A DNA stretch of 64,000 nucleotides, from positions 13,055 to 77,054 of IMG/VR virus record IMGVR_UViG_3300032070_000632; one strand, given 5' to 3'. Positions within the stretch are counted from its first letter, which is position 1. Each line of letters opens with the position of its first letter. The notes under the pieces are model-generated. The model did no database searches. It was not told the origin of the DNA and saw nothing but the letters and a program-made list of their open reading frames with translations. Positions 42,439 through 57,978 of the stretch are shown here, one piece after another. Made by a program: the position numbers and the translations under genes. Source of the stretch: a virus.

Positions 42439-42467
42439 TTGACTTTTTTTAAAAGATGGTGTATAAT
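42439..42467 (+). promoter_or_regulatory. sigma70 promoter; likely leaderless transcript
   Basis: TTGACT-17-TATAAT; ATG 42474 lies 7 nt after the -10 box. Confidence 0.75.
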
Positions 42468-42473
42468 GACAAT

Positions 42474-43409
42474 ATGGTATCAGGCAAAGCAAAAGCAAAA
42501 GATAAAATAGATTTCAACGACAAGAAGCTTATCAGTTATACCCGCTTCTCGTCGTTTATGAATTGTCCCTATAAATTCAGTCTAAAATATAAAAAAGGGA
42601 TAAGACCGGAAAAAGAATCTGTTAAATATTCTTTTGGAAAAGCCATGCACGCCGCATTGGCTTATTTTTATGAAACGAAATGCACGGAAGAAATGGCGAT
42701 TGAATATTTTTCTTTAATTTGGGAGGAGATGACTAAAAGCGAAGCGATTGATTATGGCACTAAAAAAGTGACTAAGGCGATGGTTAAAGAAGACCCAGGA
42801 CTAGCTGATGAAGAGCATGTGGCTATCACGCCAGCTTATTATCTTGATTTGGGGGCAAGGATGCTGATGAGTTATTTTGAAACTTATCGGGGAGAAAAAA
42901 TAGAGGTTGTCGGGGTGGAACAATCATTTACTTGTCCGTTTAAAAATCCGGACACTAATTATAAAAACAGAAGATGGGAATTAACCGGCGTGATTGATTT
43001 ATTGTTAAAAAATGAAGATGGAACTTATGAATTTTGGGACCATAAAATGATGGGGAAAAAAGTCAGTGCCGGCGTATTTCAACTTTCTCATCAGGTTCCG
43101 GCTTATATTTTAGGGGCCGCTTTTTTGCTTCAAATTCCCATTGATAAAATTAAAAGATGCGTTTTTAATATTATTTATAAAACCGGAGATTTAGAATGTG
43201 AACGGATAGAGGTGACGAGGACTAAGGAAGAAATGACCATGTTTTTTAAACAATTGACGCATGTCGCTAAGGCGATTGATAATGATAAAATTTTTCAAAA
43301 TTTTAGTTTTGCCTGTGCTTCTTGCGAATATCTTAATTATTGTTTGGGGAAAAAGGATAAATATCTCGATACGATATTTTCCGATGCCGAAGACCCCGAT
43401 GAATTATAA
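42474..43409 (+). CDS. PD-(D/E)XK RecB/Cas4-like exonuclease
   Basis: ISYT...CP, GKAMH, GVIDL...DHK, Q..AY, CASCEY..YC. Confidence 0.88.
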   Translation: MVSGKAKAKDKIDFNDKKLISYTRFSSFMNCPYKFSLKYKKGIRPEKESVKYSFGKAMHAALAYFYETKCTEEMAIEYFSLIWEEMTKSEAIDYGTKKVTKAMVKEDPGLADEEHVAITPAYYLDLGARMLMSYFETYRGEKIEVVGVEQSFTCPFKNPDTNYKNRRWELTGVIDLLLKNEDGTYEFWDHKMMGKKVSAGVFQLSHQVPAYILGAAFLLQIPIDKIKRCVFNIIYKTGDLECERIEVTRTKEEMTMFFKQLTHVAKAIDNDKIFQNFSFACASCEYLNYCLGKKDKYLDTIFSDAEDPDEL

Positions 43410-44121: not shown

Positions 44122-44925
44122 ATGCCAAGCGAAACTGTTAAACAGTCAGTGGGAATAATCGGTATGGGTGTATTAGGCCGTGCGATTAAGAATTATTATA
44201 AAAATGCTCTCGTATTTGACATCAATCCGGAAATCGATTCCAATGATTTTAATTTGGTCGCCCAACGAGACTGGGTTTTTGTTTGCGTCCCCACTCCATC
44301 AACCGCAGATGGAAAAATTGATTTATCGGCGATAGAGGAAACGATAGAAAGATTGAGCAAGACGGCTATTTATGAAAAAACTAAAATAGTCATTAAATCA
44401 ACCGTCGTTCCTGGCACCGCCCAACGATTGCAGGACCAGTATCCGCATTTACAGATTATTTCCTGTCCGGAATTTTTAACGGAGAACACGGCTTGTGAAG
44501 ATTTTGCTTATCCGGACAAAAATATAATCGGTACTACCAGGCAATACCCGCGGCTCGGAGCAGACCTGGCCAGAATATTGCCGGTGGCACCGGTTTTAAT
44601 TATGACTTCAACGGAAGCGGAAATGGTTAAGTATGCCATTAATTCTTATTACGCCATGAAAGTTATTTTTGCGAATGAATTGTATGATTTATGCGAGGCA
44701 TTGGATGCAAATTATAATGCCGTGCATCGAGGATTGGTGGCTGATAAGAGAATTAATGATTCTCATTTTTCTATCTTTCACGGCACGCATCGTGGTTTCG
44801 GCGGAAAATGTTTAACAAAAGATACTATGGCTATTGTTGAAAAGGGCAAAGAGCTTGGAATTGATATGGGTCTGTTAAAACAGGTTTTAGAATTAAATAA
44901 AAAATTTATTAAGATAACTTTTTAA
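44122..44925 (+). CDS. ugd: UDP-glucose/GDP-mannose 6-dehydrogenase family, lacking C-terminal domain
   Basis: GMGVLG, CVPTP, KSTVVPGT, PEFL, GFGGKCLTKD. Confidence 0.9.
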   Translation: MPSETVKQSVGIIGMGVLGRAIKNYYKNALVFDINPEIDSNDFNLVAQRDWVFVCVPTPSTADGKIDLSAIEETIERLSKTAIYEKTKIVIKSTVVPGTAQRLQDQYPHLQIISCPEFLTENTACEDFAYPDKNIIGTTRQYPRLGADLARILPVAPVLIMTSTEAEMVKYAINSYYAMKVIFANELYDLCEALDANYNAVHRGLVADKRINDSHFSIFHGTHRGFGGKCLTKDTMAIVEKGKELGIDMGLLKQVLELNKKFIKITF

Positions 44926-44941: not shown

Positions 44942-45184
44942 ATGGGAATACCATCGATTAAAATAGTGGAGAGTGAAGAAAATGAGAAAGAAAAAATACT
45001 TTCTCATGGCAACATTCACTCTATCAGAAAAGATATTGACGGAATAATCAAGAGAGTGAAAGAAATACAATTATCAACTCCCGATTCACGCCAGAATGAC
45101 CTTGCTTATCAGCGGACGATAGAACACGCCATTGTCGGGCTGATTGAAGCTAAAATGTGGCTCGGCGAATATATAGTGTTATGA
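44942..45184 (+). CDS. small helical protein resembling Acb2/Tad1 nucleotide-sponge hairpin
   Basis: IRKDID..I.RVKE...R...AI..L.EAKMWLG. Confidence 0.5.
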   Translation: MGIPSIKIVESEENEKEKILSHGNIHSIRKDIDGIIKRVKEIQLSTPDSRQNDLAYQRTIEHAIVGLIEAKMWLGEYIVL

Positions 45185-45855
45185 TTGAAGTATGCTTCTG
45201 CGTTTATAAAAGATGGCAGCGTGTGCCGGATATTTTGCAAAATTTATTAAACCAAACAAATCAAGATTTTAAAGTTAATATTTGGAATAACAGCGGTCAG
45301 AATCTGGATGTCAGCAAATTTCCCGCCGGTCGGATTCAAGTGATTGATTTGGGATGCAATCTTGGTTCGGCCGCCAGATTTAAAATAGTGCCACGGACAA
45401 TGGGAAATCCAATAATATTTTTTGATGATGATGAAATTTTAGATAATGATTTTGTTGATTATTATTGGAAACAATATCAGAAATTCGGACCAGATTATAT
45501 TTTAGGATGGTTCACGAGAATTTTTAACCAAGAACATTATTGGCACTCAATTCCTTATTCTATTTATGGCACGGAGGTTGATTATGTCGGTACTGGCGGA
45601 ATGATATTAGACCGGAAAATTTTTGACCAGGAACAGTCTTTAGCGGATATACCGGAAGAGTTTAGCCGAGTCGAAGATTTGTATTTAGGTTATATTGCCA
45701 GAATGAAATATGGCATGAAATTATCGGCGATTGAGAAAAAATGTTCTATTATGGTAGATGTCCATGACCAATTCCGGTCGTTGACTGATTATAAACAAAA
45801 AACCTTTTTATTCATGCGACAGAAAGGGTGGAAAATTTTAAAAGATAAAATATGA
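45181..45855 (+). CDS. glycosyltransferase, GT-A fold
   Basis: IWNN, IFFDDD, VGTGGM, VEDL. Confidence 0.8.
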   Translation: MIEVCFCVYKRWQRVPDILQNLLNQTNQDFKVNIWNNSGQNLDVSKFPAGRIQVIDLGCNLGSAARFKIVPRTMGNPIIFFDDDEILDNDFVDYYWKQYQKFGPDYILGWFTRIFNQEHYWHSIPYSIYGTEVDYVGTGGMILDRKIFDQEQSLADIPEEFSRVEDLYLGYIARMKYGMKLSAIEKKCSIMVDVHDQFRSLTDYKQKTFLFMRQKGWKILKDKI

Positions 45856-46439
45856 ATATTGAAAAAGAAAAAGAATATTGGAATAAAAGATACGCCAGCA
45901 ATAAAACCAGTGGTGGCGGTTCATATGGAGAAGAGGCTGAATTTAAGTTAAAATCAATTAATGAATTTATTATCGATAAAGAAAAAATAAGAACAATAGT
46001 TGATGTTGGTTGCGGGGACTTCAATATTGGTTCGCAATTCATTAAATTTTTTCCCAACGCCAAATATTTAGGATTGGATGTTTCTAACGAGATAATCAAA
46101 AGACATCAAAAAAAATACATATCAGATAATTTACGGTTTGACGTAATTAACGAAAATAGAGGATTGATTTTCTTCTGTCCGGATATTCTTATTTGTTTTG
46201 ATATGTTGTTTCATGTGATGGATGACGAAACTTATAATAATATTTTAGAAAATTTAAAAAAATCATGGAGAAACTATCTTTTAATTGCTACCTATAACGA
46301 TACCAGATTGGATATGCCGTATGATTTGAATTATATAAAAAAGAGAAAATTTGACCCTAAATTTTTTGCTGAGGAATGGAAAGAAATTTTAATCCCTTTC
46401 TACGATGGAAATAAATCATTATATTTTTTCACTAAATAA
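45852..46439 (+). CDS. class I SAM methyltransferase
   Basis: SGGGS, VDVGCGD, LGLDVS, DMLFH. Confidence 0.9.
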   Translation: MNIEKEKEYWNKRYASNKTSGGGSYGEEAEFKLKSINEFIIDKEKIRTIVDVGCGDFNIGSQFIKFFPNAKYLGLDVSNEIIKRHQKKYISDNLRFDVINENRGLIFFCPDILICFDMLFHVMDDETYNNILENLKKSWRNYLLIATYNDTRLDMPYDLNYIKKRKFDPKFFAEEWKEILIPFYDGNKSLYFFTK

Positions 46440-46442
46440 TTT

Positions 46443-47036
46443 ATGCCCATAGCCAGACCAGATGTGATACCGTTCGTTTGCGAATGGTTTAGCCAAAAAA
46501 GCATTAAAGAAATAAAAAGCGTTTTGGATGTGGGGAGCGGTTTTGGCTTGTGGGGATTTTTAGCCAGGCAATATATTCAGATTTGGCAGCCAGGAATAAA
46601 AGAAGATGACTACATAAATTTTAAAAATAAGATGAGAGTTGATGCGATTGAGATAGTTGATTTTTACGTTACCGACATCCAGCGTCAAATTTACAATAAC
46701 ATTTATTGTGCCGACATGCGGATAAACTTGCCATCGTTAAGCTGGTATGACCTTATAATCTGCGGCGATATTTTAGAACATATCAATTTTACTGACGGAC
46801 TAAAACTTTTAGAGGAAATGAGAAGGCGGTCAAGATGGGTAATAATAACTATGCCTGATTATTTTGCCAGAGGAAATGAGATAATGGGGCAGATAAGCGA
46901 TTTGCACGAATATGTCTGGAAAGACAATGATTTCCCCGACCGGCCAGTTGTTACCCATATTAACAAACAAAAAGTAATTATTTACGAAGATTCTAATTAT
47001 GCCGACAAAAGAAAACTCTTTGAAAAATCTCGTTGA
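46443..47036 (+). CDS. class I SAM methyltransferase
   Basis: VLDVGSGFGLWG, GDILEH. Confidence 0.88.
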   Translation: MPIARPDVIPFVCEWFSQKSIKEIKSVLDVGSGFGLWGFLARQYIQIWQPGIKEDDYINFKNKMRVDAIEIVDFYVTDIQRQIYNNIYCADMRINLPSLSWYDLIICGDILEHINFTDGLKLLEEMRRRSRWVIITMPDYFARGNEIMGQISDLHEYVWKDNDFPDRPVVTHINKQKVIIYEDSNYADKRKLFEKSR

Positions 47037-47619
47037 TTTTAAAAAAGTAATGGACGAACTAAAGATATTTTTTTGGTTAGATTCCGGCACTTTACTCGGG
47101 GCTTATCGTGATAAAAATATTATTACCGGCGACGAGGATGACAGCGATATTTGCATGTGGAAAGACAATGCGGTCCGCAGTCCTGAATTTCTAAAAAAAT
47201 TAAGAGAAGCCGGATTTTCCATTCTGCATGATTGGCGGTTTGTCAATGCCACTTCCGAAGGAATTGGCATTAAAAGGGATGGCAATAAGATTGATATTGT
47301 CATGATGCACCGCAAGAAAAACGAACATGGCGATGTGGCGTTTTATTTGTCCAGAAATTTTAGCGGACAAATGGGTTCAATGCCCTATTATGCCTTTGTC
47401 TTCCCTGGAAAACTGTATGATGAATTTAATGAAATAGAATTAGGCGGAGTTAAATATAATTGTCCTAAAGATGTTGAGGGATATTTAGTGGCTCGCTACG
47501 GCCAAAATTGGAATATTCCAATTTTACGTGGACAGGGTTGGAATCCTATCGACCCGTCTAATAATCCTTGTCATCGCACTAACTGGAAATATGACGACCC
47601 AAAAGCAATGCTCTACTAG
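46999..47619 (+). CDS. LicD-family phospho(no)transferase
   Basis: FWLDSGTLLGAYRD...DDSDI, YLVARYG.NW..P. Confidence 0.88.
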   Translation: MPTKENSLKNLVDFKKVMDELKIFFWLDSGTLLGAYRDKNIITGDEDDSDICMWKDNAVRSPEFLKKLREAGFSILHDWRFVNATSEGIGIKRDGNKIDIVMMHRKKNEHGDVAFYLSRNFSGQMGSMPYYAFVFPGKLYDEFNEIELGGVKYNCPKDVEGYLVARYGQNWNIPILRGQGWNPIDPSNNPCHRTNWKYDDPKAMLY

Positions 47620-48460
47620 GGTTGATTCCCTTTATGAGCTTTTACAAAAAAATAAATTTGTCAGAGTGCTTGAGGCCCATAATGGCTTGTCTGGTTTAAT
47701 TGTGGAAAATTCAGACTTTGATGCCATTTGGGAGAGTTCATTGACTGATTCGGCTTCTAAGGGCTTGCCGGACATCGAACTGGTTAGTATGGATTCCAGG
47801 ATGGAAACTATCAGGCAGATTATTGACGTGACCACCAAGCCGATTATTGTTGATGGCGACACCGGCGGCCAGATTGACCATTTTCCGTATTGGGTAAATA
47901 AAATGGAGAAGGCTGGCGTATCAGCCGTGATTATTGAAGATAAAGCATTTCCTAAAAGGAATAGTCTGGATGAAAGTGCCCAACATCAGTTAGAAGAAGT
48001 GGATATTTTTGCTAAAAAGATTGAAGCCGGAGTAAAAGCGAAGATGAACGATAAATTTATGATTATCGCCCGTTTGGAAAGTTTGATTGCCCAGCATTCA
48101 GTTTATGAAGCGTTAATCAGAGCCGAGGCATTTTTGAAAGCTGGCGTGGACGGGATTATGATTCATTCTAAAGAAAAAATTTCTGCCACGGAAGTTTTTG
48201 AGTTTGCAAGAAGATTTAAAATGATGTCAAAAAAACCATTGGTTTGCGTACCTACCACTTATAATGATATTTTTGAACAACAATTACAGGAGGCGGGATT
48301 TAATATAGTTATTCATGCCAACCACTTATTGCGGGCATCTTTTAAAGCAATGGAGAAAGCAGCGGAAAAAATTTCCGTCAATCACCGCAGTAAGGAATTG
48401 GATGATGATATTTCTTCGGTGAAAGAAATATTTAACATTGTCGGTTATGATAAATTATAA
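47591..48460 (+). CDS. pepM: phosphoenolpyruvate mutase
   Basis: EAHNGLSG, DSASKGLPDIE, DGDTG, diagnostic EDKAFPKRNS (EDKx5NS), ARLESLI. Confidence 0.95.
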   Translation: MTTQKQCSTRVDSLYELLQKNKFVRVLEAHNGLSGLIVENSDFDAIWESSLTDSASKGLPDIELVSMDSRMETIRQIIDVTTKPIIVDGDTGGQIDHFPYWVNKMEKAGVSAVIIEDKAFPKRNSLDESAQHQLEEVDIFAKKIEAGVKAKMNDKFMIIARLESLIAQHSVYEALIRAEAFLKAGVDGIMIHSKEKISATEVFEFARRFKMMSKKPLVCVPTTYNDIFEQQLQEAGFNIVIHANHLLRASFKAMEKAAEKISVNHRSKELDDDISSVKEIFNIVGYDKL

Positions 48461-49628
48461 AAAAATTATTGAGTGTTTAAAGGAAAATGAAATTAAATTT
48501 ATTACTGGCGTTCCAGACAGTACGCTTAAGCACATAATCTGTGCTATCGCCGACGATAAAGATTTTCAACACGTTCCAGCCACTAATGAAGGAGAGGCCG
48601 TGGCCTTGGCAGCCGGATATTTTTTTGCCACAGGAAAAGTTCCCATGGTATATATGCAAAATGATGGATTATTTAATGCTGCTAATGCTTTAGCTTCGTT
48701 ATGCAGTTTTAATGTTTATGACGTCCCGATGCTTTTAATGATTGGCAAACGTGGCATTGAAGGCGATGAGCCACAACATTTAATGGCAGGAGAAATGTTG
48801 GAAGATTTTTTAAAATTATTACATATCCCCTGTAATTATCAACATATAGAAAATAATGAAAATATTGAAGATGAAATTTTGGAAGACCTTAGTTCAGCAA
48901 TAATTTACGCTCGCCGAGAAATACGTCCGGCAGCCATTATTTTTCAAAAAGGAAGTATCTATGATTTAGAAGAAAAAAATAAAATTGGAACGACGGAACC
49001 ATCAATGCGGGAGAAGTGCCTTGATATTTTATTGAACTATATCGGTATAGGTATAGTTGTTTCCACTACTGGTTTAACTTCTCGTGAATTGTATGAATTG
49101 AGGAAAAAAAGAGGTGAAAAAACAGATGATATTTTAATGGTTGGTTCTATGGGATGTGCTTCGGCGATTGGTTTAGGCGTAGCACTTCAAGAAAATAACG
49201 ATTATCAGCACGATAAGTCGAGTTACCGCAATGTTTATGTTCTGGATGGTGATGGAGCGGCTTTAATGATGTTGGGAAATATGGCTACTATCGGTTATTA
49301 TCTGCCGGAAAATTTAGTGCATATTATTTTTGACAATGGCGGTTATGTCAGCACGGGCAAACAACAACGGATAGGTGATAGAATTAATTGGCAAATGCTC
49401 GCCCAGGGATTGGGATATTATACTTTTAAAGAGGTTGACGGCCGAAGCATGGCTGAAACTAAATGTTTCGGTAAATTGGGTGAAATATTGGATTTTCATA
49501 AAATGCCTATGCCGGCATTGATAGTGATTAAAATTGACCAGTCGGTCCGTGGTGATTTAGGCAGACCAAAAGATTTAAAGGAAATCAGAAAAAATTTTAT
49601 GATTAAAATTTTTAACAAAGACATATGA
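48447..49628 (+). CDS. ppd: phosphonopyruvate decarboxylase
   Basis: GVPDS, NEGEAV, YMQNDG, DEPQH, STTG..SREL, VGSMG, DGDGA TPP motif, LGRP. Confidence 0.95.
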   Translation: MINYKKIIECLKENEIKFITGVPDSTLKHIICAIADDKDFQHVPATNEGEAVALAAGYFFATGKVPMVYMQNDGLFNAANALASLCSFNVYDVPMLLMIGKRGIEGDEPQHLMAGEMLEDFLKLLHIPCNYQHIENNENIEDEILEDLSSAIIYARREIRPAAIIFQKGSIYDLEEKNKIGTTEPSMREKCLDILLNYIGIGIVVSTTGLTSRELYELRKKRGEKTDDILMVGSMGCASAIGLGVALQENNDYQHDKSSYRNVYVLDGDGAALMMLGNMATIGYYLPENLVHIIFDNGGYVSTGKQQRIGDRINWQMLAQGLGYYTFKEVDGRSMAETKCFGKLGEILDFHKMPMPALIVIKIDQSVRGDLGRPKDLKEIRKNFMIKIFNKDI

Positions 49629-50620
49629 TTCTATACGGAGATTTCAAAGAAAAAATTAAAAAAATAACAAAGAGAGAATTTGGCGTGGAAATGCTGGTTT
49701 TAACTAATGATGTTTTTAAAGAATTTATTTTGGAAAATCCTAATGGGTTGACAGTGCCTGCCAATCCGACTGATAAATTTTTAGATAAAGCCAGAAGTTT
49801 CGCCAGCGACCGATTTTATAAAGGACCATTCAAATTTATTGTTTCCATCGGCGGCGGGTCGGTAATTGACGTGGGAAAAATATTATCAGTATTATTTGAA
49901 ATTCCGCACATTGTCGTGCCTACCACCTGCGGAAGCGGAAGCGAAGCAACTTCCTATGCGGTGATAATAGAAAAAGAAAAAAAGGAAACAATAACTAATA
50001 AAGAGTTTTTGCCTAAATATGTGGTTTATGATGAATATTTTTTAAAAGAAATTGACCATAATAAAGAGGCAATAGCATTAATAGCTGGAGTATTTGATGT
50101 ATTATGCCATTGCGTTGAATCTTATCTTTCGCCAAAATCAACTCCAGTAAGTGAAAAATATGTCCATAAGGCGATAAATTTATGGAAAAGATTTTCTTGG
50201 CAATGGTTGGATGGACAAAAAAAAGCATCATTGGAAATGTTTGAAGCGGCATTTTATGCCGGCAAAGCGATTGATATTACGCAGACTGGAATTTGCCATG
50301 CTGTTTCTTATCCACTAACAACAAAATATGGCATACCACATGGCTTGGCGGCCGCATCCATGCTGGCAACTTTAATTTTTTATATCGACCAATTAGATAA
50401 AAAAGCGGAAGAAAGATTCTATCAGTTATTTTCCAAAAAAGAAAGATACGGATTGCTCGGGTTGATAAGTATTTACTGCAAAATGGAAGAAATGAAAAAA
50501 CTTTTTAAAAAAATTGATATTGAATATGTTATGAAAGAGGCAAAAAAATCTTCCAGATTTAAGAATAGTATTTTAAAATTGCCACCTAAATTTATTTATT
50601 TTTTCAATTATGTTAAATAG
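49625..50620 (+). CDS. Fe-containing alcohol dehydrogenase, putative phosphonoacetaldehyde reductase
   Basis: GGGSVIDVGK, PTTCGSGSEAT, D..CH..ES, CHAVSYPLT, PHG; follows ppd. Confidence 0.88.
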   Translation: MILYGDFKEKIKKITKREFGVEMLVLTNDVFKEFILENPNGLTVPANPTDKFLDKARSFASDRFYKGPFKFIVSIGGGSVIDVGKILSVLFEIPHIVVPTTCGSGSEATSYAVIIEKEKKETITNKEFLPKYVVYDEYFLKEIDHNKEAIALIAGVFDVLCHCVESYLSPKSTPVSEKYVHKAINLWKRFSWQWLDGQKKASLEMFEAAFYAGKAIDITQTGICHAVSYPLTTKYGIPHGLAAASMLATLIFYIDQLDKKAEERFYQLFSKKERYGLLGLISIYCKMEEMKKLFKKIDIEYVMKEAKKSSRFKNSILKLPPKFIYFFNYVK

Positions 50621-51047
50621 AATAGGTTATCTCCCAATGACGGCTGATTTGTTGCATGTCGGGCACATTCACGCCATTTCTCAAAGTCTTGTTTTTTGCC
50701 GTCATTTAATAATTGGCTTATTAAACGACAAAGCGATTGAAGATTATAAAGAAAAACCGCCAGTAATACCATTTAAAGAAAGAAAAGCGATGTTGGAATA
50801 TGTTTTGCCGTTTTTTTCAAAACATACCGGTCAGACTACCCAAATTGTTGAACAAGATAATATTGATTTTACCGAAAATTTAAAAAAATATAAACCGGAT
50901 TGCGTATTGAGCGGGGATGGCTGGCAAGAAGAAGAAAGAAAATCTGCGGAAAAACATAAATGCAAATTAATTAATTTTAAATATTATCCGCATCAAAGCA
51001 CAACAATGATAAAAAACAGAGTAAGAGAACTTTATGCCGATATTTGA
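50610..51047 (+). CDS. HxGH cytidylyltransferase
   Basis: MTADLLHVGH, IGLL.D, ERK, GDGW, QSTT. Confidence 0.9.
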   Translation: MLNRIGYLPMTADLLHVGHIHAISQSLVFCRHLIIGLLNDKAIEDYKEKPPVIPFKERKAMLEYVLPFFSKHTGQTTQIVEQDNIDFTENLKKYKPDCVLSGDGWQEEERKSAEKHKCKLINFKYYPHQSTTMIKNRVRELYADI

Positions 51048-51693
51048 ATCTAATGGCAAGAAATTTTTTTATAACGATGATAACGACAGTCCACGGATGG
51101 CCGGCGGAGAGATGAATAATTTATACCGCCTGCCGAAAGATTTGAAGATAGTAATTGACATTGGTGCTCATATGGGAGGCACGGCGGTTTATGGAGCTAC
51201 GCTGGGAGCCGAGGTATATGCTTACGAGCCGGACAGAATTATATTTGATTTATTTAAAAAAACGATTGCTGAAAATTTACTGGAAAAAAAGATACACGCT
51301 TTCAATTTAGCCGTTTGCGATGTCAGTAAGGGAAGATTTAGAAAATTATATCAGCATCCGGTTTATTCGGTTTATAATTCAATTTGCGAACCATATCTGA
51401 ATACTAGAAATTTTCAAAACAAATCTTATTATTATGTTAAAACAATTTCTTTAGCCGAAATATTCAGTGAAAATAAAATTGACGTCTGCGATGTTTTAAA
51501 AATTGATTGCGAGGGCAGTGAAGAAGAGATATTATTTTCCGCTGATAAAGAATTATTTAGCAGAATAAAACAAATATCAGTGGAAATAGACGGCGATGAC
51601 AACCAAAAGAATAAAATAGTTGATTTTTTAAAAAAGTTTTACCCTCGTATGGAAACAATAAAAAATGAGATATTTTTCTTTTATCAAGTATGA
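51034..51693 (+). CDS. FkbM family methyltransferase
   Basis: IDIGAHMG, AYEP, LKIDCEGSE. Confidence 0.9.
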   Translation: MPIFESNGKKFFYNDDNDSPRMAGGEMNNLYRLPKDLKIVIDIGAHMGGTAVYGATLGAEVYAYEPDRIIFDLFKKTIAENLLEKKIHAFNLAVCDVSKGRFRKLYQHPVYSVYNSICEPYLNTRNFQNKSYYYVKTISLAEIFSENKIDVCDVLKIDCEGSEEEILFSADKELFSRIKQISVEIDGDDNQKNKIVDFLKKFYPRMETIKNEIFFFYQV

Positions 51694-52262
51694 AATTATT
51701 AATTGTTGCCCACTTAGATGACGAAATATTATGGTTTAATACCGTTGAGTTTGATTTAATAATCATTGTTTTTTTAGGTAGGATTGACCGGCCGGATATT
51801 GAAAAAGGAAGATATAAAGTATTGGAAAATCATCCTTTTAAAGATAAAATTTTATGTCTTGGTTATACCGAAACTAATTATTGGCGGGACCGGAGCAAAC
51901 GGGAATTGTACGAATCTCAATTAATGTCTTTGGTAAATTATTTAACTGAATGGAAAAAGACAAACAAACCTAACCAGATATTTACGCATAATCCTTGGGG
52001 AGAATACGGGCATTCTGACCATGTTTTAGTCCATAAGGCGGTAATGAAAGCATTTCCAGAAATTAATAAATTTGGCTTGGCTAAAGGAATTTTATCAGCT
52101 GAGGGCAGAGAATCGGAAATCGACCCGTCATTGACTTTTACTGGCATTATGGACATACCGCAATTTATTAGGATAAGAGATTTATATTTGAAATGCGGTG
52201 CCTGGACGTGGAGTTTAGATTACTATCCGGAATTAAAGACAACTTATTATTTAATGAAATAA
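51690..52262 (+). CDS. PIG-L/LmbE-like de-N-acetylase
   Basis: VAHLDDE, THNPWGEYGHSDH. Confidence 0.85.
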   Translation: MKLLIVAHLDDEILWFNTVEFDLIIIVFLGRIDRPDIEKGRYKVLENHPFKDKILCLGYTETNYWRDRSKRELYESQLMSLVNYLTEWKKTNKPNQIFTHNPWGEYGHSDHVLVHKAVMKAFPEINKFGLAKGILSAEGRESEIDPSLTFTGIMDIPQFIRIRDLYLKCGAWTWSLDYYPELKTTYYLMK

Positions 52263-52633: not shown

Positions 52634-53323
52634 ATGAAAAATAAAAATCCATTAATCAGCGTCGTCAATGCCACCTATAACCAGAGAGAATGGGTTGACC
52701 AATTATTAATTTCCTTGAAAGAACAAACTTACCGGCCGTTGGAAATTTTGATTGTCGGCGACGGATGCACTGATTATACCCAAGAGATAACGGAAAAATT
52801 CGTCAAGGAAAATAATACTAAAGATTTTACTGTCCGGTTTATTGTCAAAGAACATACCGGCGTACAGGAGACACGCAATCGCGGACTGGATGAAGCTAAA
52901 GGTAAATATATAATTTTTCCTGATTCCGATTGTTTCTTATATCCGACTTGCTTGGAAAAAATGTGCAATGTTTTAGAGGTGGTGCCGTCCATTGGTTATG
53001 TTTATTGCGATATGGAAAATTTAGGATTTTATAATAACATTCATCGTAGCGGAGAATTTGATGAAGAACGGTTGCGGCGTGGAAATTATATCCCCGTGGT
53101 GGCTTTAATGCGGTTAATAGACCAGACTCCGCATTGGGACCCGCAGATTAAGCGGCATCAGGATTATGACGTCTGGCTTTCTTGGCTGGATAAAGGATTT
53201 CCTGGTTATTGGATAAATGAAGTTTTATTTAGACATCATACTCGCAATAATAGTTTAACCTTTACCAGTGTTTCTATCGCCGAAGCCAACGCCAGCGTTT
53301 GGCGAAAACATGGAATAATTTAA
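52634..53323 (+). CDS. GT2 glycosyltransferase
   Basis: ISVVNATYN, GDGCTD, RNRG, DSD, QDYD. Confidence 0.9.
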   Translation: MKNKNPLISVVNATYNQREWVDQLLISLKEQTYRPLEILIVGDGCTDYTQEITEKFVKENNTKDFTVRFIVKEHTGVQETRNRGLDEAKGKYIIFPDSDCFLYPTCLEKMCNVLEVVPSIGYVYCDMENLGFYNNIHRSGEFDEERLRRGNYIPVVALMRLIDQTPHWDPQIKRHQDYDVWLSWLDKGFPGYWINEVLFRHHTRNNSLTFTSVSIAEANASVWRKHGII

Positions 53324-53333: not shown

Positions 53334-53516
53334 ATGAAAAAAACACATCGGTATTTATTAAAATTAATTAAGGGGAAGAAAACCAAACAAATAGAATTAG
53401 AATTTCCCAATACTGATACGCCAGTGGCTTATCTGGATAATTCAATAATAACCTTACGGCAAGCCGGTTATGAAATTAAAGCGGTTTATAAAGATATTGA
53501 TTGGTTTAATTTATGA
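53334..53516 (+). CDS. hypothetical protein
   Basis: 60 aa ORF with ATGA overlap. Confidence 0.5.
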   Translation: MKKTHRYLLKLIKGKKTKQIELEFPNTDTPVAYLDNSIITLRQAGYEIKAVYKDIDWFNL

Positions 53517-54235
53517 AAATAGCAACATTCACTTTAACCAGAGAACGACTTGATTATACGCAACGGACGTTCGCCGAAATCAAAGGCACGGCCGGCATTG
53601 AATTTGACCATTTTGTGCTGGACAACGGCTCAAGGGACGGAACTCCCGAATGGCTGGAAAAAAATAAAGATTTATTTAAGAAAGTGATTTTATCTCCCGA
53701 CAATAAAGGATTATGGGGAGGAATTAATATTATTTTAAAAGAAACTAATTTTTTTGAGGGATATAATTATGTGCTTAAATTAGACAACGACGTGGAATTT
53801 ATCACTGATTGTTGGTTGAGAAGGTTGGCTTTAATGTCTGCTGAGATGGGAAATAAAGTAGTTTTATCTCCTTATGTTGATGGTCTCGGGTCCGGTCTCG
53901 GCGGTGCCCCTCGTTATTCGCATGAACTTATCGCCGGCAATAAAATTAGTTACAGTCATCATGTCGGCGGAATATGTTTATTTACCAGTCAAGACGCTTA
54001 TAAAGCTAGCGGATATTTCCCTGGTTGTCTGGGAAAGGCACAGGGTTGGGATGTTTTTTTCTGCGGACGGGCAAAAAATATGGGATATAAAATCGCTTAT
54101 TTGGAAGACGTAAAAATAAAACATATGGATACGACCGTGGAACAGGAAAAAATCAGACCGGATTATTATAACCGAAAAGTCTTAGAAGCGAGGATTCCAT
54201 ATCGAGGAAATATTGATGATTATAAAATATTATGA
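53513..54235 (+). CDS. GT2 glycosyltransferase
   Basis: LDNGSRDGT, NKG, KLDND. Confidence 0.9.
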   Translation: MKIATFTLTRERLDYTQRTFAEIKGTAGIEFDHFVLDNGSRDGTPEWLEKNKDLFKKVILSPDNKGLWGGINIILKETNFFEGYNYVLKLDNDVEFITDCWLRRLALMSAEMGNKVVLSPYVDGLGSGLGGAPRYSHELIAGNKISYSHHVGGICLFTSQDAYKASGYFPGCLGKAQGWDVFFCGRAKNMGYKIAYLEDVKIKHMDTTVEQEKIRPDYYNRKVLEARIPYRGNIDDYKIL

Positions 54236-54906
54236 CAGTTTCAATAATTTTAATCACTTATAATTCCTGGCACGTCTTGCCGATGTTTTTTAAAGGATTG
54301 GAATTGGCGGATTATCCTTTTAGTTTATATGTGGTTGATAATTTTTCCCAACATCAACCAGATTTAGACAGAGTGGTTAGTGTTGGCGTAATGAATAATA
54401 ATAATTGCCGGCAAATTTCATTGATAAAAAATAAAGAAAATTTAATGTATACTAAGGCGGCCAACCAAGGGATGATAGTGGCCGATGGTGAGTTGTTTCT
54501 TTTAATGAATCCGGATTGTTATGGCGTTGATAGTGGCTGGCTTAAAAAAATGATTGAATATTGGGAACAATATCGACCAGATGTGGCCGGCTATAAATTA
54601 GTGCGACCTGACTTACGGGAGATAGAACATGCCGGAGCTCATGCTCCTGGCGTGCATGAGGGCAAGGGCGAACAGGACAACGGACAATATGATGAGCCAA
54701 GAGAATTAATGAGAGCCGACCAGTACGTAACCGGTGCTTGCTGGATGATTGCTAAAACCACTATTGATAAATATGGATTATTGCCGGAAGAGCATGTTCA
54801 TTATGCTTCGGACAGGGAATATTGTTTTAATGTTAGGAATAATGGCGGACATATCTGGTATTTTCCTACAAAAATGGTTCATATGTTTGGAAAAAGTTGT
54901 CTATAA
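54232..54906 (+). CDS. GT2 glycosyltransferase
   Basis: ITYN, VVDN, AANQG, MNPD, VTGAC, SDREYC. Confidence 0.9.
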   Translation: MTVSIILITYNSWHVLPMFFKGLELADYPFSLYVVDNFSQHQPDLDRVVSVGVMNNNNCRQISLIKNKENLMYTKAANQGMIVADGELFLLMNPDCYGVDSGWLKKMIEYWEQYRPDVAGYKLVRPDLREIEHAGAHAPGVHEGKGEQDNGQYDEPRELMRADQYVTGACWMIAKTTIDKYGLLPEEHVHYASDREYCFNVRNNGGHIWYFPTKMVHMFGKSCL

Positions 54907-54927: not shown

Positions 54928-55836
54928 ATGAACAAACTAAAAATATTTTTTCCAGTTGATACTTCATGGGGTTTAGTCATGCACCGGATAACTTATGACA
55001 TTCAGCGATTCGCACCGCATGATAAGTTCGAATTTGTGGACACCTATGAAAAATGCGACATTGCTTTCTGGCATTTAATCGGACCAAACAAAGTGCAAAA
55101 AGAAAAACCTTACGTAATACTCTTCCATTGTTTTGGCCGAGACCGAGGAGAGATAGCCATGCGGGAAATTTGGCTGGAAAATTTCAAACAAGCGGAAATG
55201 GTTTATGGTTATTATCCGCTCCATAAATTTATTGGCGAAGATGACATGAAAGAAATAAATTATGTTCGCCAGCCATGGGGGGTTGATAATACTATTTTTT
55301 ATCGGATGCCGGAAGTGAAAAAGCAATTTACCTGCGTGGCCACTGGTTATGTGGCTCAAACTGAGGCATTATTGGAATTATATCGTGCCTGCAAGGCAGT
55401 TGGCGGGAAATTGCTTCATATCGGCGGTTCGTTGGATAGAGAAGTCGGTCTGTTAAATCCGATGTATTACGAACGTATCTGTAATGTCAGTGATGATGAT
55501 ATGCGGCGAGCGTACAATTCCGCCTACTGGGTTTCCGGATTGCGGCGAGTTGAAGGTTATGAAATTCCGGCTTTGGAAGGATTTGTCTGTGGCGCCCAGC
55601 CTATTTGTTTTAATATTGAAGACTTTTATCCGTATTGGTTTGGCGATTTTGCTAATTTTATTCCCCAAGGGAGTGTTGATGATACAACGGAGGCATTGGC
55701 AAAATTATTTTCCGTTCAGCCGTTGATAAACAGCAAAAAGATAGAGGAAATAAAGAATAAATTTGATACGGAAAAATTATCTCGGGGATTTTGGGATGTT
55801 TTAATACAATCATTAACTAATAAAAAAATTATATGA
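54928..55836 (+). CDS. GT-B (GT4-like) glycosyltransferase
   Basis: WGVD..IF, YNSA, EGYEIPALE (Ex7E). Confidence 0.82.
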   Translation: MNKLKIFFPVDTSWGLVMHRITYDIQRFAPHDKFEFVDTYEKCDIAFWHLIGPNKVQKEKPYVILFHCFGRDRGEIAMREIWLENFKQAEMVYGYYPLHKFIGEDDMKEINYVRQPWGVDNTIFYRMPEVKKQFTCVATGYVAQTEALLELYRACKAVGGKLLHIGGSLDREVGLLNPMYYERICNVSDDDMRRAYNSAYWVSGLRRVEGYEIPALEGFVCGAQPICFNIEDFYPYWFGDFANFIPQGSVDDTTEALAKLFSVQPLINSKKIEEIKNKFDTEKLSRGFWDVLIQSLTNKKII

Positions 55837-57209
55837 AAAAGCCAACCGCAAAATCTATAATTTCTCGACAACTTGACCGACGGGGGCGGGAGATGGGAAA
55901 TAAAAAAATTAAAATTTTATGTTACTGCGATACGCCAACGGCCATCACCGGCTTTGCCACCGTTTCTAAAAATATTTTAAAACAGCTTTATAATACCGAA
56001 AAATATGAAATCGTGGTCTGGGGCATAAACTATTACGGCTTGCCGTACGACCATAATGAATTTCCCTATGAAATTTATCCGGCTTCTTATGCCGACCACA
56101 ATGATTTATACGGACGGAACGCTTTTGTCAATTTTATGAGCCAGATTGATTTTGATATTTTATGGACGCTTAATGACCCATCGGTAGTGGATACTTTCTT
56201 GCCGGAAGCAGTTGTGGAATTACGTCGGCAAGCACCGAATAAAATTTTTCAATGGATTTTTTATTTTCCGATTGACAGCGAGTTTATCCGCCGGTCTTGG
56301 TTCACGCCAATTATGACCGCTGATTTTCCGGTCTGTTATAATCAATGGACTTACGACCAATTGACGGCCGCCGCTCCCGAATTAAAACGTGATTTACGGG
56401 TAATACCGCACGGCATTGACGCCAATGATTTCTTCCCTATTTCCAATGAAGAAAAATTAGCGTTTCGCAAAGATTATTGGAAAGGAATGATAAATGACGA
56501 TACTTTCTTAGTAATTAACGTCAACCGCAACCAGCAGCGAAAAGATTTTTACCGTACGCTGAAAGCGTTTAAACTGTTTAAAGACAAATATCCTAATTCT
56601 CATTTATACATTCATTGCAAGGTTGATGACGTCGGCGGCAATTTAATGGAAATAGCTGCTCAAGTCGGCTTAATCCCCAAACAGGATTTTTCTTATCCCC
56701 ATCCCGATAAATTTCATCCCGCCACCGGCATGCTGATTGACGTGCTGAATAAGATTTATAATGTCGCCGACATTGTAATGTCAACGACGCTGGGAGAAGG
56801 TTGCGGACTTTCTTCTCACGAAGCGTTTGCCACAAAAACTCCGATTGTAATGCCTAACCATACCGCTTTGATTGAAACGCTAAAAGACGGCAGGGGATTT
56901 GCCGTCAAAGCGGGTGGCGATAATAATTTGTGGGAAGTTATGCCAATGGATAATTCAATTATCCGGCCATTGACTGATGTTGACGATATGGCAAAAAAAC
57001 TCGGCGAAGCATACAACAACCGCCGAGAGCTTAAAGCAATGGGAGAGCGTGGCTATAATTGGGTGATGAACCGGACTTGGAGCAAGGTTTGCCGAGAATG
57101 GAATGACTTGTTTGAGCAAGCCGCCGAGAAAACTTTATTATTGCGTCAGGGGAAGATTATGAATTTTGGTGGTGCTGTTGGTAAAGATGTTGGAGCTGTC
57201 CGTCAGTAA
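55833..57209 (+). CDS. GT4 glycosyltransferase
   Basis: TGFA, PHGID, NRNQQRK, EGCGLSSHE (Ex7E). Confidence 0.9.
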   Translation: MKKPTAKSIISRQLDRRGREMGNKKIKILCYCDTPTAITGFATVSKNILKQLYNTEKYEIVVWGINYYGLPYDHNEFPYEIYPASYADHNDLYGRNAFVNFMSQIDFDILWTLNDPSVVDTFLPEAVVELRRQAPNKIFQWIFYFPIDSEFIRRSWFTPIMTADFPVCYNQWTYDQLTAAAPELKRDLRVIPHGIDANDFFPISNEEKLAFRKDYWKGMINDDTFLVINVNRNQQRKDFYRTLKAFKLFKDKYPNSHLYIHCKVDDVGGNLMEIAAQVGLIPKQDFSYPHPDKFHPATGMLIDVLNKIYNVADIVMSTTLGEGCGLSSHEAFATKTPIVMPNHTALIETLKDGRGFAVKAGGDNNLWEVMPMDNSIIRPLTDVDDMAKKLGEAYNNRRELKAMGERGYNWVMNRTWSKVCREWNDLFEQAAEKTLLLRQGKIMNFGGAVGKDVGAVRQ

Positions 57210-57978
57210 AGTGAGTATAACGCTGGGTAGTGAGTATGGAAGTATGCCCCAGCATTTCCTGCACTGCCCTAATATCCAGTCCCGTATTCATTAAGTTAGT
57301 GGCGAATGAATGCCGCAGGGTATGGGGAGTGATTTGTTTAAAAGGCACGCCGATTTTAGCGGCGGCCTTTTTAATTATTTTTTGAATGGTGCGGGGAGTG
57401 GTCGGATTTTGTCCGCCAAAAAGAAACGGGCTGGACGCTATCCGCAAGAGCAGGTCTTTGGTGCGGTCGGTAAAGAAAACCAGCCGAGCTTTTCCCCGCT
57501 TGCCGATTATGGTTATTTTTTTATCGGCAAAGTCAATTTTTTCCGTGCGGATATTCGTCATTTCCGACACTCGCAAGCCCGTATCGTAGAGCAGGGAAAT
57601 AACCGCCCTGTCCCTGTCGGTATCGCAGGAATTAAAAAGTCGTCCGATTTCCTGCGGGTCTAAAAAAGAAATATATTTATCCGCCATTTTCGGCAGGACG
57701 ACCGCCTCACTGCCGATTATTTCTTGGCAGTGTTTGTTTTGGTATTTAAGAAAACTTTTCAAAGCGACTAAATAATGACGCTGGGTAATGGACTGGTATT
57801 TGTTTGCCAGATATTGCGTATAATCCATTAAGTCTTTTTCCGTGATTAGTTTTAATTCTTTGTCGCCGCACCAGCCGCTAAACGCGGACAGGCGTATGCC
57901 GTATGCTTTGGCGGTCAAGGGCGAGGAGCGTAGCACCCCGCTTAAATAGGCGATAAAATTATCAATGTCTTTTTTCAT
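57157..57978 (-). CDS. XerC/D-like tyrosine recombinase
   Basis: TGLRVSE, GKRGK, HTLRHSFAT, LGH, TQRY. Confidence 0.93.
   Translation of the reverse strand: MKKDIDNFIAYLSGVLRSSPLTAKAYGIRLSAFSGWCGDKELKLITEKDLMDYTQYLANKYQSITQRHYLVALKSFLKYQNKHCQEIIGSEAVVLPKMADKYISFLDPQEIGRLFNSCDTDRDRAVISLLYDTGLRVSEMTNIRTEKIDFADKKITIIGKRGKARLVFFTDRTKDLLLRIASSPFLFGGQNPTTPRTIQKIIKKAAAKIGVPFKQITPHTLRHSFATNLMNTGLDIRAVQEMLGHTSILTTQRYTHFTDGQLQHLYQQHHQNS

Follow-up and report, generated by a model that had tools for sequence, protein, structure and literature searches.

The genome of a sediment bacteriophage carries five consecutive genes, all on the plus strand at positions 46999-51047 of the window (the whole 64,000-nucleotide stretch analysed), that probably form a working phage-borne pathway for making and activating a phosphonate, with which a LicD-family transferase would decorate a glycan. 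In the proposed scheme, PEP mutase (PepM) would convert PEP to phosphonopyruvate, which phosphonopyruvate decarboxylase (Ppd) would turn into phosphonoacetaldehyde, pulling the unfavourable equilibrium of the mutase. The Fe-dependent alcohol dehydrogenase (Fe-ADH) is the predicted phosphonoacetaldehyde reductase yielding 2-hydroxyethylphosphonate (HEP), the stand-alone, Fom1-type cytidylyltransferase (CTase) is predicted to convert HEP to CMP-HEP as a "split Fom1", and LicD is predicted to take HEP from CMP-HEP and attach it to a hydroxyl group of a sugar. The surrounding soluble enzymes would assemble a short glycan in the cytoplasm, methylate it and partly de-N-acetylate it. From sequence and model comparisons, we infer both these enzyme activities and HEP as the product.

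Profile searches matched each of the five genes to its expected family, bearing out the run of overlapping genes proposed in the initial annotation. Overlaps between adjacent genes range from 4 to 38 nt, with 29 nt shared by LicD and PEP mutase, or 92 nt if the latter begins at its GTG codon. PEP mutase scores 347.7 bits on TIGR02320 (cut-off 319.55), and the diagnostic EDKx5NS motif noted at the outset is read directly from its sequence as EDKAFPKRNS. A grouping of the mutase with methylisocitrate lyases had been raised as a possible objection; that identity was rejected, as the mutase reaches 132 bits on the prpB model, whose cut-off is 354. Ppd is intact, with its GDG...DN ThDP motif and the NEGEA region of the catalytic Glu, as is Fe-ADH, with a GGGS motif and all four D/H/H/H metal ligands in alignment to 1vhd. 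The best PDB match of the CTase is the CyTase domain of Fom1 (5x3d, E 3.2e-15), compared with 5e-6 for ethanolamine-P and glycerol-3-P cytidylyltransferases, and over its full length it can be aligned, at 30-36% identity, with the CyTase domain of proteins in which CyTase is fused to PepM. LicD retains an invariant GDExDxD block and also matches NF045866 (cholinephosphotransferase Mf1; 50 bits). The best fold match of its AF2 model (pLDDT 84) is FKRP (6kal, E 2.4e-7), a CDP-ribitol phosphotransferase of the LicD family.

The extent first given, 46999-51047, holds for the core genes, but the functional unit is larger: a 13-kb glycan operon of 17 genes at 44122-57209, whose content beyond the core includes six glycosyltransferases, three methyltransferases, a PIG-L deacetylase and a sugar dehydrogenase (Table 1). 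The initial annotation had overlooked this export-less operon, as well as the phage-specific PepM clade and the virion as a possible acceptor. No multi-TM protein is encoded in the operon, hence no flippase, polymerase, priming transferase or ABC exporter, and GtrA/GtrC are likewise absent from it. A C-terminal UDP-binding domain was not found in the dehydrogenase-like protein at 44122..44925. The GT2a protein shares 50-53% identity with the N-terminal half of GT2a-LicD fusion ORFs (424-428 aa) in phage sequences L002, L003 and L010.

The 77-kb genome is complete, with a 127-bp terminal repeat and a CheckV completeness of 100%, and Pfam and PHROG matches identify its portal, protease, major capsid, tape measure, tail fibre and DnaB genes. 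The claim that phage genes flank the core was upheld by Pfam matches for the exonuclease upstream and the tyrosine recombinase downstream. The accompanying RusA call, for the ORF at 43711-44115, was not, as none of the Pfam, PHROG or RusA models matches this ORF. Promoter-like, early-looking sites lie at 42298-42467, ahead of the unit formed by the exonuclease and the glycan operon.

Table 1. Features of the phage window bearing on phosphonate and glycan synthesis.
Feature	Position	Strand	Evidence and remarks
Major capsid protein, lambda gpE type; candidate glycan acceptor	12532..13581	+	phrog_29 6.7e-66, PF03864
GT4 glycosyltransferase inside head module	14513..15583	+	phrog_7162 8e-46, PF00534; ~0.9 kb downstream of capsid gene
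O-methyltransferase (TylF/Methyltransf_24)-GT2 fusion	19523..21088	+	PF13578 6.6e-16, PF00535 2.1e-17; between head and tail genes
PD-(D/E)XK exonuclease	42456..43409	+	PF12705 1.9e-24; opens + strand unit continuing into glycan operon
Short UDP-glucose/GDP-mannose dehydrogenase-like protein, 267 aa	44122..44925	+	PF00984 1.8e-23, PF03721 2.4e-20, phrog_9148 4e-45; first operon gene
GT2 glycosyltransferase GT2a	45157..45855	+	PF00535
Class I SAM methyltransferase MT1	45852..46439	+	PF13649 + PF13847; homolog in L048 44% identical
Probable methyltransferase MT2 (weak call)	46443..47036	+	Sub-threshold Methyltransf_23/25; homolog in L048 45% identical
LicD-family phosphotransferase	46999..47619	+	PF04991 35.7 bits (cut-off 22.6), N-terminal part only
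PEP mutase	47591..48460	+	PF13714 6e-55; ATG at 47591 likelier start, alternative GTG start 47528
Phosphonopyruvate decarboxylase, single chain, 396 aa	48438..49628	+	TIGR03297 313 bits (cut-off 312.5)
Fe-dependent alcohol dehydrogenase, group III	49625..50620	+	PF00465 + PF25137
HxGH cytidylyltransferase	50610..51047	+	PF01467, HVGH motif
FkbM-family methyltransferase	51034..51693	+	TIGR01444 78.8 bits; conserved in L002, L010
PIG-L/LmbE-family de-N-acetylase	51690..52262	+	PF02585; conserved in L002, L003, L006, L010, L048
GT2 glycosyltransferase GT2b, soluble	52634..53323	+	PF00535 1.5e-24; no TM segment
GT2 glycosyltransferase GT2c	53513..54235	+	PF00535; homologs in L006, L048 51-55% identical
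GT2 glycosyltransferase GT2d	54232..54906	+	PF00535 6e-13
GT-B fold (GT1/GT4-like) glycosyltransferase	54928..55836	+	Atlas: nearest clusters viral "glycosyl transferase group 1", TM 0.86; no Pfam match
GT4 glycosyltransferase	55833..57209	+	PF00534, phrog_2170 7e-44; last operon gene
Xer-like tyrosine recombinase	57157..57978	-	PF00589 7e-39, phrog_1 1.3e-50; convergent with end of glycan operon

Other phages, of at least three further lineages, carry the same cassette. In L010, L011, L003, L008, L002 and L004, and in one 40.6-kb record with terminal repeats, it neighbours genes for TerL, capsid and adaptor. In lineage B, the whole cassette has the capsid gene on one side and an SU10-type head-tail adaptor gene on the other. 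The nine phage PEP mutases form one phage-only clade (SH-aLRT 99). Spread across several unrelated tailed-phage lineages and with a PepM clade confined to phages, the cassette is a phage trait of long standing.

On the question of the acceptor, the phage's own virion proteins, the capsid protein first, are favoured at roughly even odds, and the host envelope is the main, less likely rival. This preference follows from the position of the lineage B cassette within the head genes, the capsid-adjacent GT4 gene, the methyltransferase-GT2 fusion and the lack of export genes in the operon. The capsid-adjacent GT4 is found at the same position in the sister phages L107 and L108 (68.5% identity), and a more distant relative has no capsid-adjacent glycosyltransferase block. 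A point against it is that the capsid protein shows no obvious Ser/Thr-rich tail. In mycobacteriophages, the subunits of capsid and tail tube are known to carry glycans built by soluble, phage-encoded glycosyltransferases and methyltransferases (Freeman et al., 2023, as cited in PMC12619734). The capsid-side glycosyltransferase genes here and in lineage B fit this model, though the hosts and lineages differ, no phosphonate is known from mycobacteriophages in that account, and attachment to the virion is here a prediction.

The main operon of this phage lies outside the head module, after the recombination genes and behind early-looking promoters, with the tyrosine recombinase beside its end, which speaks against a virion acceptor. 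The recombinase-side, early region is the classical site of lysogenic-conversion genes that alter the host surface. It is possible, if tentative, that the same chemistry is directed at the envelope of the host, which is probably Gram-positive; the acceptor would be a lipid-linked precursor of its teichoic acid, capsule or S-layer glycan. The benefit would then be a block to superinfection, progeny not lost on cell debris, or an altered lysogen surface. The tyrosine recombinase directly at the operon end, together with the single XRE-type HTH gene of the genome, is in keeping with a host target, as are the early/recombination unit to which the operon belongs, the relatives of the capsid protein among prokaryote genomes (13/13 in Bacillota) and the cassette of lineage C (L006), likewise outside the structural module. 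LicD enzymes whose function is known modify lipid-linked precursors of teichoic acid or LPS on the cytoplasmic side of the membrane, so the lack of export genes is compatible with a host target. Additionally, LicD-like transferases have been tied to cell-wall glycans (PMC6697681). However, the lineage B cassette is fixed within the late head module, where remodelling of the surface would come too late, and glycosyltransferases are kept beside the capsid gene in the present lineage. The operon also lacks GtrA/GtrC, a flippase, a polymerase and a priming transferase, and lysogeny is unproven because no S24 repressor was found in the genome.

Turning to the head group, HEP rather than 2-aminoethylphosphonate (AEP) is predicted because a six-frame search of the complete genome revealed no class V (Aminotran_5), class III (Aminotran_3) or DegT aminotransferase, which extends to the whole genome the argument of the initial annotation. 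Its further suggestion, that the phage makes CMP-HEP and places a phosphonate on a glycan, is supported by PepM, Ppd, Fe-ADH, CTase and LicD matches that are each consistent with it. The reduced product is not certain, since Fe-ADH scores 96 bits on the phosphonate Fe-ADH equivalog TIGR03405, far under the cut-off of 423.7, and is absent from the L002 and L003 cassettes. Both points would suit a different head group, arising if a host transaminase made AEP or if the methyltransferases modified the phosphonate before its cytidylylation and transfer. AEP is by far the commonest surface phosphonate (56% of gene neighbourhoods; PMC8942020), the three methyltransferases of the operon have no assigned substrate, and L004 encodes a Fom3-like B12-radical SAM enzyme. 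Even so, such a head group is unlikely given the absence of aminotransferase genes, the intact Fe-ADH placed between Ppd and CTase, and the membership of the CTase in PF01467, nearest to the HEP-specific Fom1 domain, whereas characterised AEP-activating PntC enzymes belong to PF12804.

A role in DNA modification, through a base hypermodified with a glycan or phosphonate, or in a diffusible phosphonate antibiotic is very improbable. Phage glycosyltransferases frequently target DNA, as cited in PMC12619734, and fosfomycin biosynthesis includes Fom1-type activation (PMC6697681). Against these roles, the genome encodes neither a thymidylate-synthase-type hydroxymethylase nor TGT/DpdA, and no Fom3, Fom4 or HppE-type tailoring enzyme; LicD and the eight glycosyltransferases of the whole genome suggest a glycoconjugate, and both roles sit poorly with the head-module placement in lineage B.

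That the cluster is bacterial DNA mis-assembled onto a phage, or the contig a non-viral cellular island, is scarcely credible: contiguity of the operon with the phage genes comes from a metagenome assembly, and an independent sediment sample of another study offers short Logan contigs (<1 kb), none bridging the operon boundaries, but these cover the whole 40-60 kb region at ≥99% identity and even depth, the genome is closed, the operon is similar to the remaining genome in GC content and uniform with it in strand, additional glycosyltransferases lie within the structural module, and in three or more other phage lineages homologous cassettes adjoin genes for TerL, capsid and adaptor.

No published description of a phage-borne pathway for phosphonate synthesis, activation and transfer was found in the literature searched, so that, for phages, the earlier statement that no characterised full viral pathway was known stands. 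Bacterial precedent exists for the chemistry, and the phage setting is new to the searched literature. The early fosfomycin pathway of Streptomyces wedmorensis follows the same logic with the same four activities, encoded by Fom1 (CyTase-PepM), Fom2 (Ppd) and FomC (Fe-ADH), and Fom1 is reported to make CMP-HEP (PMC6697681; PDB 5x3d). The phage pathway differs in its carrier, in encoding the CTase as a separate gene and in lacking Fom3, Fom4 and HppE, and it adds LicD and many glycosyltransferases. Because these follow in the phage, CMP-HEP would be a glycoconjugate donor rather than an antibiotic intermediate. The bacterial Pnt pathway (Ppm, Ppd, AEP transaminase and PntC) likewise passes a CMP-phosphonate to a LicD-type transferase and on to a glycan, and its ppm is tightly linked to a nucleotidyltransferase gene, a likeness to the phage core (Rice et al., 2019; PMC6697681). 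Unlike Pnt, the viral cassette has no AEP transaminase and its CTase is of PF01467, not the LicC/PntC family PF12804; HEP is predicted in place of AEP because the phage has an Fe-ADH.

In a 2022 inventory (Li and Horsman, 2022; PMC8942020), Ppm was absent from RefSeq viruses and from 364 huge phages, and the only one recorded came from a giant-virus MAG. A metagenome contig of a giant virus (NCLDV; GCF 881 of that inventory) bears a Ppm-Ppd core beside sugar genes, for which a phosphonoglycan was proposed. However, that case is a single contig from a giant virus of eukaryotes, has Ppm fused to Ppd and takes the AEP branch, whereas the present cassette belongs to tailed phages, follows the predicted HEP branch, includes CTase and LicD, and recurs in several phage lineages.

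For the predicted end product, the exopolysaccharides of Glycomyces and Stackebrandtia, which carry HEP as a glycan substituent, provide a chemical precedent (Yu et al., 2014, as cited in PMC8942020). Those polymers, according to that citation, are secreted and come from cellular loci, in contrast to the export-less phage operon. If the virion is the acceptor, the phage would wear a hydrolase-resistant glycan coat capped with phosphonate.

The five tightly packed plus-strand genes that the initial annotation had read as a phosphonate synthesis, activation and transfer module are present exactly where it placed them, and they lie within an operon, conserved among phages, whose predicted product is a glycan tagged with phosphonate. 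The PEP mutase (PepM) scores 347.7 bits against the TIGR02320 equivalog model (cut-off 319.55), and the models of its sister families score far lower, at 172.9 bits for phosphonopyruvate hydrolase and 132.4 bits for prpB, both far under their own cut-offs; the enzyme thus keeps the mutase identity proposed for it and does not score as a methylisocitrate lyase. The EDKx5NS motif reported earlier is read as EDKAFPKRNS, and residues E116, D117, K118, N124 and S125 are invariant among 25 homologs. On this basis, PepM is predicted to turn PEP into phosphonopyruvate. The gene for the adjacent phosphonopyruvate-consuming enzyme, the decarboxylase Ppd, shares 23 nt with the 3' end of pepM, and its product passes the TIGR03297 cut-off marginally (313 bits against 312.5), with a NEGEA catalytic Glu region, a GDG...DN thiamine-diphosphate motif and both the N- and C-terminal ThDP domains. 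The Fe-dependent alcohol dehydrogenase (Fe-ADH) has a GGGS dinucleotide (NAD(P)-binding) motif and, in alignment to 1vhd, all four Asp/His/His/His metal ligands. It falls outside the curated phosphonate-cluster equivalog TIGR03405 (96 bits against a cut-off of 423.7), and is read as a phosphonoacetaldehyde reductase because its gene sits between those for Ppd and the cytidylyltransferase (CTase).

Core cassette genes and other features of the phage genome (window coordinates)
Feature	Position	Strand	Remarks
ORF in terminase position	2791-6993	+	1400 aa; directly upstream of portal gene
Major capsid gene	12532-13581	+	lambda gpE type
GT4 glycosyltransferase near capsid gene	14513-15583	+	
Leucine-rich-repeat (LRR) protein	17303-19138	+	611 aa; BspA type; PF13306, six stretches
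O-methyltransferase-GT2 fusion	19523-21088		
899-aa protein	21066-23765	+	no Pfam or PHROGs match
ORF called RusA in the initial annotation	43711-44115		no HMM match (Pfam, PHROG, RusA model)
UDP-glucose/GDP-mannose dehydrogenase-like	44122-44925	+	267 aa; no C-terminal UDP-binding domain
80-aa ORF	44942-45184	+	other frame; no match
LicD	46999-47619	+	core gene
PEP mutase	47591-48460	+	alternative GTG start 47528; TIGR02320; EDKx5NS
Phosphonopyruvate decarboxylase (Ppd)	48438-49628	+	TIGR03297; PF02776 + PF02775
Fe-dependent alcohol dehydrogenase	49625-50620	+	PF00465 + PF25137
HxGH cytidylyltransferase	50610-51047	+	PF01467; HVGH
94-aa ORF	52193-52477	+	two hydrophobic segments

In described pathways, Ppm and Ppd yield phosphonoacetaldehyde, which PhpC-like Fe-ADHs reduce to 2-hydroxyethylphosphonate (HEP), and the PF01467 CyTase domain of Fom1, a CyTase-PepM fusion of the fosfomycin pathway, makes CMP-HEP (PMC8942020; PMC6697681). 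Phosphonate pathways directed to the cell surface are accompanied by LicD-like phosphotransferases, and the exopolysaccharide of actinomycetes has yielded purified HEP conjugates (PMC8942020; PMC6697681). In a PDB sequence search, the closest solved relative of the phage CTase is the Fom1 CyTase domain (5x3d, E 3.2e-15), ahead of the ethanolamine-phosphate and glycerol-3-phosphate cytidylyltransferases (4.6e-6 and 5.7e-6). It also aligns over its full length, at 30-36% identity, with the N-terminal CyTase domain of CyTase-PepM fusion proteins, the PepM halves of which are 58-60% identical to the PepM of this phage. This end-to-end alignment makes the phage CTase a "split Fom1", with a predicted preference for HEP and CTP. 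The LicD protein matches PF04991 at 35.7 bits (gathering score 22.6) over residues 22-56 only; G44, D45, D48 and D50, in the acidic DxD block of the nucleotidyltransferase fold, are invariant in ten phage homologs. A PDB sequence search with LicD gave no match, and only a fold search gave one: an AlphaFold (AF2) model built on the ten phage homologs (pLDDT 84.3) found as its best Foldseek matches FKRP (6kal, 6kam; E 2e-7, TM 0.54), a LicD-family CDP-ribitol phosphotransferase. The phage LicD is a divergent member of its family.

A six-frame search of the closed genome gave no Aminotran_5 (class V), Aminotran_3 (class III) or DegT match, in agreement with the earlier remark that no aminotransferase is visible, and HEP rather than 2-aminoethylphosphonate (AEP) is therefore the predicted product of the phage's own genes. 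The wider proposal, that the phage makes CMP-HEP and installs a phosphonate on a glycan, is likewise supported by the proximity of the CTase to the Fom1 domain and by the missing aminotransferase. The module works like the bacterial AEP tailoring pathway Pnt, yet it is not that pathway, which uses an AEP transaminase (PF00266) and the LicC-family enzyme PntC (PF12804); neither is found here, and the only cytidylyltransferase is of the PF01467 type. A less likely alternative is that a host transaminase makes AEP instead, a reading that gains from two sister cassettes, on contigs L002 and L003, in which Fe-ADH is missing. In those two phages, the step falls to a reductase or transaminase of the host, unless a different compound is activated.

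The functional unit exceeds the five-gene span first described. Positions 44122-57209 hold 17 genes of known or probable function that overlap or are separated by tiny gaps, with small unannotated ORFs between some of them and a single sizeable gap of 156 nt. A UDP-sugar dehydrogenase-like gene is followed by a family 2 glycosyltransferase (GT2a), two class I methyltransferases, the five core genes and an FkbM methyltransferase; the 3' part encodes a PIG-L de-N-acetylase, three further GT2 enzymes, a GT-B enzyme recognisable by structure and features alone, and a GT4. Since GT2a, PIG-L and FkbM are the conserved partners of the core, we infer an order of steps, suggested by their presence, in which a HexNAc residue would be added, de-N-acetylated, phosphonylated and then methylated. 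Promoter-like sites lie at 42298-42467, ahead of the exonuclease gene, and no convincing terminator was found before about 57.3-57.7 kb. A hydropathy scan of 44122-57209 revealed no multi-span membrane protein, and no flippase, polymerase, priming phosphoglycosyltransferase or ABC exporter is encoded there; the only membrane-like protein inside the operon is the 94-aa ORF, after which the 156-nt gap follows. The operon thus differs from the lysogenic-conversion O-antigen system Gtr, which comprises a membrane GtrB with C-terminal TM helices, a GtrA flippase and GtrC; its GT2b has only a weak phrog_841 match (1.5e-6) and no TM segment.

Profile matches bear out the exonuclease and the Xer-like recombinase named as flanks of the cluster; the RusA call upstream was not upheld. 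Reading the ORF so named as a dehydrogenase N-terminus split off by an in-frame stop was also rejected, since the dehydrogenase ORF itself opens with a Rossmann GxGxxG motif. Equally short dehydrogenase-like homologs occur in four other phage or virus contigs (L005, L007, L010 and L006), so the 267-aa protein may be a genuine compact form rather than a broken gene. The 80-aa ORF comes directly after it.

The window is part of a single 77,054-bp virus record (bases 13055-77054), the ends of which repeat over 127 bases and for which CheckV gives 100% completeness; it is a closed phage genome. Portal, prohead protease, a lambda-gpE-type major capsid protein, tape measure, tail fibres, an M23 peptidase, DnaB helicase and primase are all encoded, and the GC content of the operon (0.33-0.37) falls among the values seen elsewhere in the genome. 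The record comes from a sediment metagenome, and a second run, from another sample and another study, contains 68% of sampled words. Contigs from that run cover 30 of 30 bins of 40-60 kb with at least 99% identity and even low depth; as they reach at most 961 nt and none crosses an operon boundary, they are evidence of co-occurrence, not of physical linkage. Two apparent "joints" in the contig placement were disregarded as 21-22-nt side matches of unrelated high-depth contigs.

Several other features of this genome were recorded. The ORF in the terminase position contains two Intein_splicing stretches, Hom_end_hint, LAGLIDADG_3, HNH_3 and a further Hint module, and appears to be a large terminase subunit carrying two or three inteins. 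The first 13,054 nt of the source genome, ahead of the window, encode an XRE-type HTH protein (323-490), a RadC-like JAB protein (505-1179), an N6/N4 DNA methylase (1187-2875) and a small C5-methylase/ResIII-like ORF (2887-3456), which together resemble an early or anti-restriction block. A search for a cI-type S24 repressor gave none, no tRNA genes were found in the window, and ten small ORFs at 57.9-63.2 kb have no Pfam match.

The cassette is not confined to this phage. An IMG/VR scan with the single PepM protein gave no matches; a scan with an alignment of close PepM homologs returned 7 contigs, plus many metagenome contigs. Using all genes of this genome in tblastn, a conserved cassette was found in contigs L002, L003, L008, L010, L011, L009, L006, L048 and L004, in the order GT2a-LicD (mostly fused), PepM, Ppd as two small ORFs, Fe-ADH, CTase, FkbM and PIG-L. 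In L002 (4490-5786) and L003 (9195-10446), the split Ppd is directly followed by CTase. Five of these contigs (L010, L011, L003, L008 and L002) form a lineage, lineage B, with structural proteins 53-89% identical, and share the order TerL (phrog_2, 2.5e-40), a 575-aa portal-sized protein, capsid (PF25209), GT, cassette and SU10-type head-tail adaptor (PF24175). The complete phosphonate cassette of lineage B is thus fixed inside the head-morphogenesis module, with the capsid gene on one side and the adaptor gene on the other. L004 is a more distant relative, with a TerL 49% and an adaptor 42% identical to the L010 proteins; its genes are laid out alike, but the glycan block is larger. The cassette lies beside TerL, capsid and adaptor genes in L004 as in the lineage B contigs, the kind of co-location for which the initial annotation proposed to search viral databases.

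The glycan block in the L004 head module has two LicD copies alongside the phosphonate genes, and encodes a B12-binding radical SAM protein of Fom3-like architecture (3926-5431), a CMP-sugar synthetase-like protein (6775-7314) and the nonulosonic-acid synthase NeuB (7945-8979), a gene content that suggests a methyl-branched phosphonate and a sialic-acid-like sugar. L006 belongs to a record of 40.6 kb that has terminal repeats and a TerL-like region, and here the cassette is placed outside the structural module; the terminase-like match in this record (L090, G003:32234-33778) contains ten stop codons (5 TGA, 1 TAG and 4 TAA), and may be spread over several frames or broken by an insertion. Two IMG/VR predicted viral contigs, L005 (144.5 kb) and L007 (137.8 kb), encode Ppd, Fe-ADH, CTase, PepM and a UGDH-like protein in another order, without a phage-type LicD and with PepMs outside the phage clade; a weak terminase match was found in only one of them.

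In a quick maximum-likelihood IQ-TREE phylogeny of 86 PepM sequences, with SH-aLRT as the only support measure, the PepM of this phage and those of L002, L003, L010, L011, L009, L004, L048 and L006 form a clade (SH-aLRT 99) on a long stem (0.41), separate from the other 77 sequences. An IMG/VR scan with the alignment of phage LicD proteins brought up five contigs, all of them found before. The phosphonate trait is old in phages and rare in current virus collections.

As acceptor of the glycan, the virion is the favoured candidate, held with evenly balanced confidence. In lineage B (e.g., L010) the cassette stands between capsid and adaptor genes, and in the present genome a GT4 gene follows the capsid gene at a distance of about 0.9 kb, with a counterpart of 68.5% identity in the same place in two sister phages from other samples (L107 and L108). 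An O-methyltransferase-GT2 fusion is encoded between the head and tail genes, and in a more distant relative (L109) the capsid genes run straight into the tail genes, so this glycosylation block is a lineage-specific insertion downstream of the capsid gene. Moreover, all operon enzymes are soluble and export genes are absent. The capsid and tail-tube subunits of mycobacteriophages carry glycans (Freeman et al., 2023, as cited in PMC12619734), and virion glycosylation of that type involves soluble phage GTs linked to structural genes, an arrangement also found in this phage. On this reading, the glycan would be attached covalently to capsid or tail subunits; no Ser/Thr-rich tail hinting at glycosylation sites was seen in the capsid and tail proteins. 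The inserted block also contains the LRR protein and the 899-aa protein, which may be decoration or fibre proteins carrying or binding the glycan. More broadly, we tentatively propose, at somewhat less than even confidence, that several lineages of tailed phages cover their capsids in a methylated glycan with a HEP cap.

A glycan of the host envelope is the main rival acceptor, judged somewhat less likely than the virion. In this phage the main operon comes after recombination genes and has a tyrosine recombinase at its end, which is where conversion genes are usually found, and the genome encodes an XRE-type regulator. Known LicD enzymes use lipid-linked precursors on the cytoplasmic side of the membrane. 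All 13 capsid-protein relatives found in prokaryote genomes (25-32% identity) belong to Bacillota, which carry teichoic acids; these matches suggest Bacillota or Clostridia of sediments as hosts. An acceptor other than the virion or the host envelope is improbable. A free phosphonate antibiotic is unlikely because LicD and eight GTs are encoded in the genome and the late fosfomycin genes are absent, and hypermodification of the phage DNA is also unlikely, with no thymidylate-synthase-type or TGT-type enzyme found.

Phosphonate biosynthesis is regarded as a cellular trait. The initial annotation knew of no characterised full viral pathway, and the literature searched likewise contained no description of phosphonate biosynthesis in a bacteriophage. 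Li and Horsman (2022) reported that neither the RefSeq viral genomes nor 364 huge phages yielded a Ppm, and described a single giant-virus contig carrying an AEP core (PMC8942020); in addition, Borg elements are reported to have a possible PepM fusion. Five GenBank phage records have a PepM match by tblastn. Two are short and unverified contigs of human-faecal origin, named "Bacteriophage sp." (48-52% identity); two come from Acinetobacter phages, where an annotated methylisocitrate lyase is matched (26% identity); and the fifth is the cultured Vibrio phage Va2 (MW073017). The annotated "PEP mutase" of Va2, on which no paper was found, is an atypical protein of 434 aa with the motif EDKNPSAKINS (EDKx6NS), in which six residues rather than five separate EDK from NS. 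In Va2 (L092), the "PEP mutase" and a nearby ThDP-binding protein (1089-2189 and 5890-7194) flank ribonucleotide reductase genes.

The enzymology is of a known kind, and what is new is the viral carrier, the phage-only clade and the position in the head module. A conserved phage-only PepM clade accompanied by its own activation and transfer enzymes means that phages have long retained C-P chemistry, which in one lineage is built into the head-gene module. If phages do coat their capsids in this way, the C-P head group would be a charged shield resisting phosphatases and hydrolases, and phages would be a direct and so far uncounted source of phosphonoglycans in sediments and waters. A glycan on the virion would make this the first phosphonate-modified virus particle and a new chemical class of particle modification, with bearing on phage stability, recognition by hosts and grazers, and the immunology of phage therapy, and a glycan on the host would represent a new kind of phage-driven surface conversion. 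With either acceptor, the operon offers a compact five-gene set to make CMP-HEP, plus a LicD with a findable acceptor, and ties viruses to the environmental phosphonate pool.
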